DNA of 64,000 nt from Enterobacteria phage RB18. Each line of letters begins with the position of its first letter. The first letter of the stretch is position 1. The stretch is from the sequence record NC_054906.1; one strand, given 5' to 3'. Shown one piece after another: positions 7,825-63,566 of the stretch. Both the position numbers and the translations under genes were made by a program. Below the pieces are notes generated by a model that saw only the letters and a list, made by a program, of their open reading frames with translations, made no database searches and was not told where the DNA came from.

Positions 7825-8508
7825 TTATCGTTTAGTTGGAAGAGATAGAGGATCGCATTCTTCCTCTGACGGAGCATCTTCAAGACCCATAGCATATCGC
7901 AAAGCATACTTCATCATCAGGATGTCTTTCGCACAGTCATGAATAGAATCATGTGCAACGAATCCATCTAAAGTTCCCTTTGGAAGAGGACATGTGGTCA
8001 TATCACGAACAAGTAGAAGTGCTTCAATTCTGGTACGAATATCACGCTGATTCCAAAATTTACAAGGTTCTAACTTAAATGTATCAAGCTCATTCTCTGA
8101 AACGCCGTTAAGACGTTGAATATCGCGAATGAGATCGACTAAAATTGGAAAATCAAACGACATTCCACGGCACCAGCCTTGAGATTTCCAAGGATCGATA
8201 TTATGTGCATTGATGTAATCATTAAATTTTGCAATACCATCGATAGTGCTTACATCTTCATCGGATGGTGCAATATTTTTTCGAGCTTCAGGAGACTGAT
8301 TTTTCCACCATTCGATAGTGCTTTTAGTAAAAAGACGATGTCCTTTTTGGCTTTTTAAATCAAATTTGATTTTAATGCCGCGTGAAACTAATTCATCAAA
8401 TGTTTCAACGACTTCTGGATTAGGGTCAAAAGCAATTACAGCCAAATCAATAACAGCTGCTTTTTCACCGCTTCCCATTGTTTCAAAATCTATAATAAAA
8501 TCAAACAT
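7825..8508 (-). CDS. dexA: exonuclease A (DnaQ-like 3'-5' exonuclease)
   Basis: 227 aa, same length as T4 DexA; N-terminal DFETMG-type exonuclease motif. Confidence 0.8.
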   Translation of the reverse strand: MFDFIIDFETMGSGEKAAVIDLAVIAFDPNPEVVETFDELVSRGIKIKFDLKSQKGHRLFTKSTIEWWKNQSPEARKNIAPSDEDVSTIDGIAKFNDYINAHNIDPWKSQGWCRGMSFDFPILVDLIRDIQRLNGVSENELDTFKLEPCKFWNQRDIRTRIEALLLVRDMTTCPLPKGTLDGFVAHDSIHDCAKDILMMKYALRYAMGLEDAPSEEECDPLSLPTKR

Positions 8509-8783
8509 TAAACTTTCCTCGCTAAATCGCGAATTTGACCTACAGTATAATCTTGAATATAAACTTTATTAATAGGCTCATCCATAAATTTTGCCATAGA
8601 TTCAATATCTTTTTGCATCTCTTCAAGACTGTATACTATCTTTAAAGCTTTTTCGCGAATAGTAATATTTTCAGGACTAGAATTTTCCTCAATGACAGCT
8701 TTAACATTTGTCATAAGAGATTTAAACTGATGCAAACTTAATTCAATCATTAATAACCGCCTTATAAAGATGGCTAATTTCAC
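8508..8783 (-). CDS. hypothetical small protein
   Basis: 91-aa ORF. Confidence 0.45.
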   Translation of the reverse strand: MKLAIFIRRLLMIELSLHQFKSLMTNVKAVIEENSSPENITIREKALKIVYSLEEMQKDIESMAKFMDEPINKVYIQDYTVGQIRDLARKV

Positions 8784-60463: not shown

Positions 60464-60641
60464 CTAAACGAATAGGTTCATGAATGCCATATCCCTGAAC
60501 AGAAATTTCTGTCGTAGGATAAATTCCATCAATATCACCCATATTCCACGCTTCGTTAAATTGCTGTTCGCCTGAATTACTAAACCACTCGGCGAAAGCA
60601 TTTAGCACATCTTTAGAACCTTCAATAATTATCTTTGCCAT
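60420..60641 (-). CDS. hypothetical small protein
   Basis: 73-aa ORF. Confidence 0.45.
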   Translation of the reverse strand: MAKIIIEGSKDVLNAFAEWFSNSGEQQFNEAWNMGDIDGIYPTTEISVQGYGIHEPIRLVEYDLCTGEEVKYD

Positions 60642-61003
60642 TATAAGCTCTCAGTAAAGGTACGAGCAATAACGTCGCGCTGCTGTTCCGGAGTCAGAGA
60701 GTTAAAGCGAACTGCATAACCGGATACACGGATGGTCAGCTGTGGATATTTTTCCGGATGCTTAACTGCATCTTCCAGAGTTTCACGACGCAGAACGTTA
60801 ACGTTCAGGTGTTGACCACCTTCAATTTTAACTGTAGGCTGTGGCTCAATTTCAATTTCACGAGCATGCAAACCGTAGAAAATTTCTGGGTCTACAAAAG
60901 AGTCCTCTTTAAAGGTTTTAGAGACAATAATTCGTGCTTGAATACCATCTTCAAAATAAATAGTACCTTTATGTGTGCCTTCAAGAATTTGATATGCTTT
61001 CAT
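60641..61003 (-). CDS. grcA: autonomous glycyl radical cofactor (GrcA/YfiD-like)
   Basis: 120 aa; C-terminal [60 protein letters not shown] carries the glycyl radical motif RVSGYAV; 3' half is GC-rich. Confidence 0.7.
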
Positions 61004-61010
61004 ATAAACC

Positions 61011-61391
61011 TCAATTAGAAAATAAATTTATCCAAGATTGTTCTTTAATTAAAAATGGCTCAGAATCATATGCCATTAAACTCTGTGTGATTAGTCCTTT
61101 AAAAGGTCCATCAATAAATTCCATGGTAAAATATGGAATTTTATTCATTAACTGTGCGTTAGGAGCAGTGCACAAAACTCTGCATCCTTTGAATACGCCT
61201 TTTTGTAATTTGTATTGCTTGGGATAAAATTCGCTTAAAATGTTGTTATTTGCCAAAATTTCAAAATGATTCACCAATTTATTTTTAATAGTTTTTGGCG
61301 AAAAATAAAGATATTCGAAAAGCTGTGTGTCTGTCATCATTGCATTCCGATTACGAAAAACTGTGGACGAGTAATACCACCAATACAACAT
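61011..61391 (-). CDS. hypothetical protein
   Basis: 126-aa ORF. Confidence 0.45.
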
Positions 61392-61876
61392 TTACTATTA
61401 CAGCAGTAGTGTACAGTCTCAATATGGACACTATAAATCTTATCCATATCAGGAGATTTGACAGGCTCATCAATTATATACAAAATTCGCGAAAGCGATA
61501 AACCTCTGAACTTGCTTCCTTTATTACCAATAAAACTGCGCACAGAATCAGTAAATAAACGAAAACGTATATCATCATTAGAATAACGCGAAAATTCCTT
61601 TTTAATGTTATTTGCAGAAATTTTAGCGTAAGCTGAAGTATTAGAAAGAACGATAACTGTTCCGCCATCATACAACCAATTAGCAGCAAAGTTAGTCACA
61701 GCAATTGATTTACCGGATTGACGTCCACCATCTAGTCGAAGTGTGCAATACTGTTTAAGTAATTCTTCAAATGGCGGGATATATTCGTTTTTACAAATTT
61801 CTTCTACTCTAGCATCAGAATGGTGTGTAAAAGCATTCATCAGGGATAGATAAGGACCAGTTAAAAATGTTCTCAT
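61337..61876 (-). CDS. P-loop NTPase of unknown function
   Basis: 179 aa from the internal ATG; Walker A GGRQSGKS, Walker B-like ILYIIDEP. Confidence 0.5.
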   Translation of the reverse strand: MRTFLTGPYLSLMNAFTHHSDARVEEICKNEYIPPFEELLKQYCTLRLDGGRQSGKSIAVTNFAANWLYDGGTVIVLSNTSAYAKISANNIKKEFSRYSNDDIRFRLFTDSVRSFIGNKGSKFRGLSLSRILYIIDEPVKSPDMDKIYSVHIETVHYCCNSKCCIGGITRPQFFVIGMQ

Positions 61877-62029
61877 TTTATTCTCTCTAGGTTTGGGCCA
61901 TTCCGTGGCGCATGAATTGTCCATTTCTGTATTTACCCATTACCGCACTTGGGCTCGACCTTATTACAGGTTGGCGGGAATCCCTCACAGAATCATGAGG
62001 TCCAGGTTGTTCCCATATTTCTTATTTGC

Positions 62030-62503
62030 TTATTTGAACGATTTAACGTACTGAATAGAACCTTTACTATTCACAAAGGCAATTTTACCATTTTTGTTAT
62101 ACATGGTAGCAGTACGTTGATAGCCATAAGTTTGTTTACCAGATTGATAACCAACTAATGCAAAATTATCTTCACCCATTTTATTCTGTTTAGCGCGAAT
62201 ACGTTCATGACCATGTGCCATAAGAACCTTAGCATCACCTGTTGCAATGGATCGACGAGTTTTTTCATCTTCAACTGTATTAACAAAGTCGTCAAATGAA
62301 TCAAATTTAGCATGAGATTTATTATACAGTTTTCCATCTACTGCATAATTATATCCCTGTACATCCATCTCAACTTCTGTACCATCATCCAGTACAGCAG
62401 TGATTTTCTGTCCTTTTTTAAATTTCAAAAGATCAGTAAAAGATTCAGCAATAATTTGAGAATTAATAGCTGCTTCAGTAATAAATTCTTGATATGTTTT
62501 CAT
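62030..62503 (-). CDS. internal (capsid-packaged) protein with CTS N-terminus
   Basis: 157 aa beginning MKTYQEFITEA, the T4 capsid targeting sequence; located upstream of e like ipIII. Confidence 0.6.
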   Translation of the reverse strand: MKTYQEFITEAAINSQIIAESFTDLLKFKKGQKITAVLDDGTEVEMDVQGYNYAVDGKLYNKSHAKFDSFDDFVNTVEDEKTRRSIATGDAKVLMAHGHERIRAKQNKMGEDNFALVGYQSGKQTYGYQRTATMYNKNGKIAFVNSKGSIQYVKSFK

Positions 62504-62563
62504 GTGTATCCTTTAAATGTAAATATTTTAATTAATAATTTATCTCTTCAAGTAACTGTGAAT

Positions 62564-62593
62564 ATACTATCACAATTCTAGGAAAAAGTAAAC
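62564..62593 (-). promoter_or_regulatory. early promoter (GTTTAC-18-TAGTAT)
   Basis: minus-strand consensus upstream of the internal protein gene. Confidence 0.45.
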
Positions 62594-62597
62594 AACT

Positions 62598-63566
<969 letters not shown>

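Follow-up and report, generated by a model that had tools for sequence, protein, structure and literature searches.

What is the DNA between an Ip4-like internal virion protein gene and the gene vs.8 in Enterobacteria phage RB18, and does it act as RNA, as DNA or as part of a coding sequence? The stretch analysed here, referred to as the window, comprises 64,000 nucleotides (nt) of this T4-type (Tequatrovirus) genome (record NC_054906.1). The initial annotation had singled out in it the interval 61925-62029, upstream of a P-loop gene (vs.8), as GC-rich, structured and non-coding, suggesting that it may encode a small structured RNA or a regulatory site. Comparison among phages upholds the first of these suggestions, as a hairpin followed by a three-way junction is shown by comparative evidence on the minus strand, with a covariance model and compensatory changes pointing to a structured RNA, whereas a site specific to the P-loop gene is the weaker reading. 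Judged from its sequence, the element is a phage-restricted, specific and non-coding family, and it is proposed as a computational candidate for a new RNA family that matches nothing curated.

A hairpin and a three-way junction on the minus strand

The element proper takes up about 80 nt of the minus strand (62014-61936) and begins with a variable hairpin, P1, which is followed by a three-way junction formed by the helices Pc, P2 and P3. Its core, of about 35 nt, has the consensus ACCUGURRNAAGGUCGAGC-N5-6-GCGGUAA. The parts of the window copy are the following:

61895-62014, minus strand: whole conserved non-coding block of T4-type phages, made up of the RNA element (62014-61936) and a 3' extension (61935-61895)
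61932-61978, minus strand: core as recognised by the covariance model R1 (71.3 bits, E=2e-22), the sole copy in the 64-kb window
61976-62014, minus strand: P1, an extended hairpin with an outer and an inner helix
62010-62014 / 61976-61980, minus strand: outer helix of P1, GGGAA / UUCCC
61996-62000 / 61983-61987, minus strand: inner helix of P1, CCUCA / UGAGG, the inverted repeat of the initial annotation
61972-61975, minus strand: linker GCCA, the 5' strand of Pc, which pairs with 61936-61939
61958-61971, minus strand: P2 hairpin, ACCU-GUAAUA-AGGU, with the hexaloop pattern G-U-R-R-N-A
61945-61957, minus strand: junction CGA and the mini-hairpin P3, GC-CCAAGU-GC (P3 itself 61945-61954)
61940-61944, minus strand: junction GGUAA, invariant among the retrieved members
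61936-61939, minus strand: UGGG, the 3' strand of Pc, which pairs with the GCCA linker
61895-61935, minus strand: 3' extension, found in T4-likes only, with the terminal hairpin GCCA-CGGAA-UGGC (61897-61909), whose loop contains GGA

P1 keeps its position while its sequence is rebuilt in each lineage, and 24 different helices are found across lineages, among them GGGAA/UUCCC, GGGAG/CUCCC, GGGG/CCCC, GGAAC/GUUCC, AAAGG/CCUUU, AAAGC/GCUUU, AAAGA/UCUUU, GAAUGU/ACAUUC, GAGUG/CACUC, GUGUAU/AUACAC, GUGG/CCAC and UGAGG/CCUCA. Both of its helices show compensatory changes, the outer one from GGGAA/UUCCC to GGGAG/CUCCC (locus L022) and the inner one from CCUCA/UGAGG to CCUUA/UAAGG (L206). When the full model is applied to the 26 alignable sequences of types B and C, 95.6% of the cells are paired, against 18-46% with slid partners, and the covariation score is 0.151, against at most 0.073 for slid partners, a value reached by 0 of 500 shuffles. 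In these sequences the P1 pair 6/53 is always formed, as GC in 15, CG in 10 and AU in one, and the Pc pairs 62/95 and 60/97 are also formed in every case, by four and three pair types, respectively. The 51 distinct core sequences likewise have 95.6% of their cells paired, and the innermost pair of Pc is present in 51 of 51, in five types (AU 30, UA 7, UG 7, CG 6, GC 1). Taken over all alignments, the share of paired cells is 95.6%, compared with 14-49% when the partners are slid. The P2 helix is invariant among the retrieved members except in the second copy of L173, where ACCU/AGGU becomes GCCU/AGGC, a compensatory replacement of A-U by G-C. At several positions the minus strand has G·U pairs (UG in 6-11 sequences per pair), for which the plus strand would have A·C mismatches; the G·U pairs, being possible on one strand only, point to an RNA made from the minus strand.

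Other approaches contributed less. The comparison of P1 helix length with shuffled 5' flanks is a weak test (mean 5.07 compared with 3.98 base pairs (bp), with a 5-bp helix in about 29% of shuffles), which is why compensatory changes were counted within alignable groups instead. The single-sequence folds of 37 representatives are mutually inconsistent. RNAalifold, applied to 21 T4-like sequences, gave a covariation term of just -0.28 and missed the outer P1 helix, because MAFFT had offset the 5' strands of types A and B by five columns.

The junction strands CGA and GGUAA, like P2, hardly vary. Pc is about 3 bp long. In the P2 loop, the freely varying positions obey R-R-N, positions 1, 2 and 6 being fixed by the retrieval pattern, and the P3 loop occurs in 22 variants of 5 or 6 nt. 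The copy of Escherichia phage Lutter (L223 349-395) has GAUC for GAGC and has lost one of the two P3 pairs, and it still scores 61.4 bits. PEi20-like T4-type phages carry two tandem copies, the second of which is divergent (36-46 bits; L173 5093-5137, L182 9135-9179, L218 477-521) and has as its P3 a 3-bp hairpin with a triloop, GCC-CGC-GGC or GUC-CGC-GAC. In T4-like phages conservation extends from just past the stop codon of the upstream gene through to GGAATGGCCC in all copies. The hairpin of the 3' extension is predicted by RNAalifold in the 21 T4-like sequences, its pairs unvarying save for one A-U that is broken in two of them; its consensus is GCC-AnGGAAy-GGC and it lies 12-25 nt ahead of the vs.8 AUG. 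Five GGA motifs occur within the 153-nt gap between the genes. A hairpin with GGA in its loop, together with further GGA motifs, resembles CsrA-type binding sites, and such a CsrA-like 3' hairpin might couple the element to vs.8 translation.

The properties that had first drawn attention to this locus fared unequally. The interval 61925-62029 is indeed rich in G+C (45.7%, compared with 34.3% in the window; 98.65th percentile of all 105-nt windows, z=2.36), and the repeat CCTCA (61983-61987) / TGAGG (61996-62000) is found on the plus strand, a 5-bp inverted repeat being, on its own, not significant. The absence of any open reading frame (ORF) of more than a few codons was not borne out, since stretches of 32-35 codons without a stop cross the interval in three of the six frames. 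The mechanically called ORFs that cross it encode 33 amino acids (aa) from a GTG (minus strand, 61887-61988) and 53 and 69 aa from TTG (plus strand), and none of the three is conserved as coding sequence.

A phage family more conserved than its neighbours

A BLAST search with the interval gave matches in 993 of 50,697 phage records, at 1012 places, that is, about one per record, and scans of viral and metagenomic collections with exact patterns yielded 88 loci, among which 76 different sequences are represented. Of the 37 core positions, 27 or more are retained in true members, and no chance match retains more than 24. In half-pattern cross-validation, GCGGTAA was retained in every true match when the 5' half was fixed, and ACCTGT...AAGGTC in every true match when the 3' half was fixed. 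The covariance model R1, which represents the 47-nt core, scores 47-73 bits on the 88 pattern-defined copies and 36-46 bits on three divergent tandem second copies, with at most 21.5 bits in a control of 0.87 Mb of viral DNA pre-selected for part of the motif.

A core of about 40 nt recurs, with 92-100% identity, in phages other than the close relatives of RB18, such as Murica (rV5-like, Vequintavirus), phiC120 (Mosigvirus), Jiaodavirus-type Klebsiella phages and the Pseudomonas phage PsgM04F. Altogether, the core is present in Tequatrovirus, Mosigvirus, Jiaodavirus and PEi20-like T4-likes, in two rV5-like lineages, in PsgM04F and its relatives, and in environmental contigs. Among jumbo-phage relatives the metagenomic contig L222 alone carries it, and no copy was found when the model was run directly on the syntenic tRNA region of the Salmonella jumbo phage Munch. 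BLAST summaries count 6-19 Campylobacter-phage records without listing them individually, and no membership is claimed for them; the first 50 kb of Campylobacter phage CP220 hold no copy.

In bacteria and archaea, two patterns gave 0 matches in 185,579 species genomes. BLAST found no match in 5,426 complete Escherichia coli genomes, a search sensitive only to about 22 nt or longer; an origin in the host, or mimicry of a host sequence, was set aside on this ground, short seed pairing lying below the sensitivity of the search. The sole plasmid match is CP057073.1 (100818-100862, 97.8% identity over the core), an E. coli record of 137,565 bp filed in PLSDB as a non-mobilizable 'plasmid', which could be the genome of an rV5-like phage.

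The genes around the element in the window are all on the minus strand, in the order e, Ip4-like gene, gap, vs.8, vs.7 and vs.6:

62598-63092, minus strand: e (lysozyme), the gene beyond the Ip4-like gene
62030-62503, minus strand: Ip4-like internal virion protein (DUF7412), the upstream gene, with its stop codon 15 nt ahead of P1
61877-61888, minus strand: purine-rich ribosome-binding region of vs.8
61337-61876, minus strand: vs.8 (P-loop protein, PHROG 1488), corrected to 179 aa with an MRTFL start
60641-61003, minus strand: vs.6, a GrcA/YfiD-like autonomous glycyl-radical cofactor with an RVSGYAV motif, annotated likewise in T4 and relatives

The start of vs.8 had to be revised. Its annotation varies from 219 aa in T4 to 189 aa in RB32, 195 aa in the longest ORF of the window and 179 aa elsewhere. 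The start is placed at MRTFL because the 177 positions of the PHROG 1488 profile align with the 179-aa form from residue 3 to residue 179, because the full-length tblastn matches listed (from 1008 phage records) start at residues 1-5 of this form, because 18 of 39 distinct relatives have an in-frame stop 0-4 codons ahead of the conserved ATG, and because the nucleotides upstream of this ATG fall into three different reading frames among phages. The long forms of T4, RB32 and the window therefore over-extend into the gap; in T4 (NC_000866 64793-64912; L004 2794-2913) the annotated ATG of vs.8 even falls inside the P1 hairpin. With the conserved start at ATG 61874-61876, the non-coding gap is 61877-62029 (153 nt). 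The left edge at 61925 was an artefact of the over-long 195-aa ORF, and the element reaches past it.

Over 61300-62600 the window shares 99.8% of its nucleotides with Escherichia phage vB_EcoM-S1P5QW and 97-98.7% with RB32, AR1, RB14 and others. The denV-ipII-ipIII cassette of T4 is replaced here by a single Ip4-like gene (62030-62597, between e and vs.8); the ultraviolet-repair gene denV is missing from this stretch, and relatives such as NBEco003 have denV between e and Ip4. At 62025-62049, on the plus strand, TTTGCTTA is followed by TAACGT 11 nt further on, pointing antisense into the Ip4-like gene; this pair resembles a T4 MotA-dependent middle promoter.

In T4-likes the element begins a few to about 25 nt past the upstream stop codon and ends 61-102 nt before a vs.8-like ATG (39 copies examined), and the upstream neighbour changes (Ip4, denV and others). 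In T4 itself it lies between denV and vs.8, about 6 kb from the tRNA cluster, and in some copies of Jiaodavirus type the next gene is one for an internal protein, ahead of vs.8. Homologs of vs.8 were found in T4-type genomes only, and their identity drops to about 37% where the RNA core holds 92-95%. Because vs.8 is limited to T4-types and diverges faster, the RNA is not tied to it and is under much stronger constraint. A functional link to the neighbouring proteins was also considered and rejected, as vs.8 (PHROG 1488), Ip4 (DUF7412) and the rV5-like neighbours are not common to the lineages.

Outside T4-likes the setting is different. In 22 of 30 non-T4 loci there are tRNA genes on the strand of the element, at distances of about 40 nt to 1.2 kb; in L222 the core match begins about 40 nt downstream of the end of a tRNA-like gene, and tRNA-Thr and tRNA-Gly flank the element in PsgM04F. 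In these lineages the element is succeeded by a promoter, by a tRNA gene or by a further non-coding unit, and not by a homologous ORF. The orientation is always that of the local transcription unit and the neighbouring tRNAs. In rV5-likes the core match is preceded, at about 80-150 nt, by a near-consensus sigma-70 promoter (TTGACA-17-TG-TATACT, 11/12, in L024; TTTACA-17-TATCAT, 10/12, in L005), and the next strong promoter lies downstream; between the two, no conserved ORF and no terminator-like site were found on the strand of the element. In L024 a direct repeat, CC(T/A)TAGAGGGCTTGA(T/A)AGTGC, is present on both sides of it (8465-8490, 8590-8615).

In the lineage associated with tRNA clusters the element sits in a unit of about 100 nt, inside a long closing stem of inverted repeats (z=-1.8 to -4.4 in 7 of 10 members). 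Bracketing stems of this kind resemble the processing stems around stable RNAs. The same lineage has arrays of bracketed small non-coding units (L007 2430-2570; L094 10500-10720; L181 1990-2200; L195 6800-7000), which consist of the element and variable inserts, one of them with a T-arm-like GGTTCGATTCC, and which alternate with the inverted repeats AGTGCTCTT..CGTTGTGA / TCACAAC..AAGAGCATT. A weak match to tmRNA_permuted (transfer-messenger RNA) at L094 10995-11082 scores 33.7 bits, under the threshold of 47.

What the element may do

The explanation to which the balance of the evidence leans, by a modest measure, is that the element represents a new family of structured phage RNA, processed to a stable small RNA that binds a conserved partner. 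The proposed model is that the RNA would be made early by the host RNA polymerase within longer transcripts, and would then be released or stabilised as a discrete species of about 80-130 nt, as tRNAs and the T4 RNAs C and D are, so that its invariant junction could bind a putative partner conserved across hosts or across these phages. A discrete RNA is suggested by the tRNA-region context, the promoter of its own in rV5-likes, the bracketing stems and the tandem copies, and a junction acting on a conserved partner by the retention of the core across phage families whatever the neighbours. In T4-types, the element would merely happen to sit in the vs.8 leader, where it would have gained the extra 3' hairpin.

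The T4 RNAs C and D are the nearest known counterparts in kind, as small non-coding RNAs of T4-type phages that share the strand of the genes around them. Both rnaC and rnaD are located in the T4 tRNA cluster (PMC3014915), a position comparable to that of the element in rV5-like and PsgM04F-like phages. Homology to them was rejected, because the core motifs are absent from both and R1 has no match in the T4 tRNA region (L028); in addition, their stable accumulation is documented, whereas the element is known here from sequence alone. An identity as tRNA or transfer-messenger RNA was rejected as well: ARAGORN finds none in the window and, at other loci, reports the neighbouring tRNAs and never the element, whose P2 loop has 6 nt and not 7.

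Several observations weigh against this explanation. The window copy folds like shuffled sequence, with z about 0 (0.04 and 0.06 on the two strands), so that the absence of a stable predicted structure, which the initial annotation had named as an outcome that would speak against its proposal, is what was found; the block is nonetheless kept across other phages, as that annotation had asked to be checked, and it is conservation, not thermodynamics, that lifts the feature above chance. Double-sided covariation is present in only about three base pairs, and P2 and P3, being almost invariant, are uninformative in this respect. On the core alignments, sliding the partners by +1 gave covariation scores comparable to or above those of the proposed pairing (0.200 vs 0.155 and 0.155 vs 0.180), with only 49% of the cells paired. 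In the tRNA-cluster lineage the minimum-free-energy fold pairs CUAACCU with a downstream AGGUUAG and displaces P2, an alternative confined to this one lineage. Much of the apparent invariance is set by the exact retrieval patterns, by which divergent members are under-sampled. Finally, T4-likes keep the element just ahead of vs.8, with a conserved hairpin by the ribosome-binding site, which fits a role in cis, and no terminator follows the element in them.

This last arrangement is the starting point of a rather unlikely alternative, in which the element would control vs.8 in cis from its leader, as an aptamer of the riboswitch type or as an operator bound by a protein; its junction would bind a metabolite or a protein, and the 3' hairpin would relay this binding to vs.8 translation. 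The fixed placement before a vs.8-like ATG in the T4-like copies examined, even though the genes on the other side change, speaks for it, as does the extra T4-like hairpin (GCCA-nGGAA-UGGC). The element also has a conserved junction, variable peripheral helices and occasional tandem copies, features that are typical of aptamers. Riboswitch aptamers are thus similar to it in these respects and in the 5'-leader position within T4-likes, and differ in that the element matches no Rfam riboswitch and has no common downstream gene across lineages; the constant leader position before one gene, expected of a riboswitch, holds in T4-likes and fails across the other lineages. The core is present in rV5-like, PsgM04F-like and other phages in which no vs.8 homolog was found, no homologous downstream ORF exists outside T4-likes, Jiaodavirus-type phages place an internal-protein gene between element and vs.8, and no sequence within the element stands out as one with which the ribosome-binding site could pair. 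A leader of this type accounts for the T4-like synteny and for the hairpin at the ribosome-binding site, and not for the other lineages, so that the element is probably not a control element dedicated to vs.8.

It is improbable that the element serves RNA processing. In such a role it would be a new small self-cleaving ribozyme, or else a structure dedicated to recognition by a nuclease, and polycistronic or tRNA-type transcripts would be cut by way of it where cassettes meet. With about 50 nt, three helices and invariant junction nucleotides, it has a layout that resembles that of small ribozymes, which share its size, its multi-helix junction and its invariant unpaired nucleotides. It is also found where gene cassettes adjoin in T4-likes and within tRNA regions, which are sites of intense processing, and in rV5-likes no terminator separates it from the downstream promoters. 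Searches for self-cleaving classes nevertheless returned no hammerhead, twister, twister-sister, pistol, hatchet or HDV-like match (E<=10 over 551 nt of the window; E<=1 over 51 kb at eight loci), and no known catalytic-core signature was recognised. Resemblances noted by eye to twister, pistol, the Alu domain of the signal recognition particle RNA, RNase P L15, ToxI and Y RNA extend over 6-9 nt each, have no model support and were discarded.

A role at the level of DNA, as a recombination or homing target or as a small mobile module for cassette exchange, with incidental hairpins, is considered more improbable still. In Tequatrovirus, homology to the window ends precisely where the element begins on its 5' side (1-120 of the 146 query positions are covered), beside the hypervariable internal-protein/denV cassette, and the near-identical 40-mers in unrelated phage families suggest horizontal transfer. 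There is also a precedent for recombination-promoting intergenic motifs in such regions, the PeSLs (promoter-early stem-loops; PMC4122927). PeSL and PmSL motifs resemble the element as short conserved intergenic stem-loops in hyperplastic regions at the borders of variable cassettes (PMC2839356, PMC4122927). A PeSL consists of a sigma-70-type promoter (TTTACW-N17-TAYWAT in the T4/PST pair) and a terminator-like stem-loop, and a genome carries PeSLs in large numbers, with differences from one phage pair to another (PMC4122927), in contrast to the single copy of the element and to its core of about 35 nt, which is kept across phage families. No promoter-like site was found in 61895-62029 on either strand (scan of 61000-63200), and there is no terminator-like site at the element and no U-run after Pc or the 3' hairpin; lacking promoter hexamers and a terminator-like stem-loop, and with one R1 match in the 64-kb window, the element was rejected as a PeSL. 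A role as DNA is further opposed by the compensatory changes, which preserve helices of wholly different sequence among lineages, by the G·U pairs on one strand only, and by the constant orientation relative to transcription and neighbouring tRNAs.

That the element belongs to a coding sequence, as an N-terminal extension of vs.8 (219 aa, as in T4) or as a small separate ORF, is contradicted and deserves hardly any credit: although the vs.8 annotation of T4 (NC_000866) runs through it, the 195-aa ORF and the 33-aa GTG ORF are present in the window and two minus-strand frames are open through the core, stops stand just before the ATG in the relatives mentioned above and frames differ between phages, the family profile spans the 179-aa form only, differences in the length of the P3 loop put the sequence out of frame, conservation has no three-base periodicity, and the ORF over the element in the rV5-like L024 shrinks to 7 codons in the other such lineage, L005.

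Novelty and significance

A structured RNA of this kind is described in none of the resources consulted. Rfam 15 (4227 models) gave 0 matches at gathering thresholds in the whole window, and thus no family at the interval, for which a search of this type had been suggested at the outset; at E<=10 on 61700-62250 it returned snoRNA and miRNA noise only, none of it on the element, and on eight diverse loci it returned tRNAs and noise, with nothing at the element. The literature searched by keyword and by literal sequence, together with supplements of a gut-metagenome RNA catalogue, contains no description of it. Orphan structured phage RNAs as such are already a familiar kind. GOLLD and ROOL, for example, are large and highly structured orphan RNAs of phages and prophages, several hundred nt long and often found beside tRNA genes; they are phage-borne and located by tRNA genes like the element, which in contrast has only about 80 nt and gave no match to a covariance model. 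A similarity of another type is that the P2 loop, GUAAUA, is identical to the hexaloop at 1093-1098 of 23S rRNA, in the L11/thiostrepton region (sequence verified as 23S rRNA). With one base extruded, the pattern G-U-R-R-N-A seen throughout the family is compatible with a GNRA-like fold. As the match comprises six nt only, and the closing pair, the helix order and all other sequence differ, it is only a lead.

It has also been considered, as a tentative possibility, that the element represents a new functional class, whose junction would engage universally conserved host machinery (for example the translation apparatus, as the P2 loop copies a 23S rRNA hexaloop, or RNA polymerase) or which would be a new ribozyme or aptamer class. 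This would explain why the same stretch of about 35 nt is found at >=90% identity in unrelated large lytic phages. A 2010 review of T4 knew of no functionally characterised riboswitch or trans-acting small RNA in this phage (PMC3014915), and according to a 2024 review the roles of non-coding RNAs in lytic phages are still to be elucidated (PMC10884466). If the element does form a new class, it would be the first functionally meaningful small RNA or riboswitch-like element of T4.

The element is carried by about 1000 sequenced phages, including T4, T2, RB32, AR1 and rV5-type therapeutic candidates. It is better conserved than the surrounding proteins, and its spread is far wider than would be expected of a local regulatory site. 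That it was overlooked is partly due to the T4 reference annotation, which reads it as the start of the vs.8 gene; a corrected model of this gene and a new RNA family for annotation pipelines are by-products of the analysis. If it is a functional RNA, the question that it raises for phage biology is which conserved partner such different phages may address with the same RNA.

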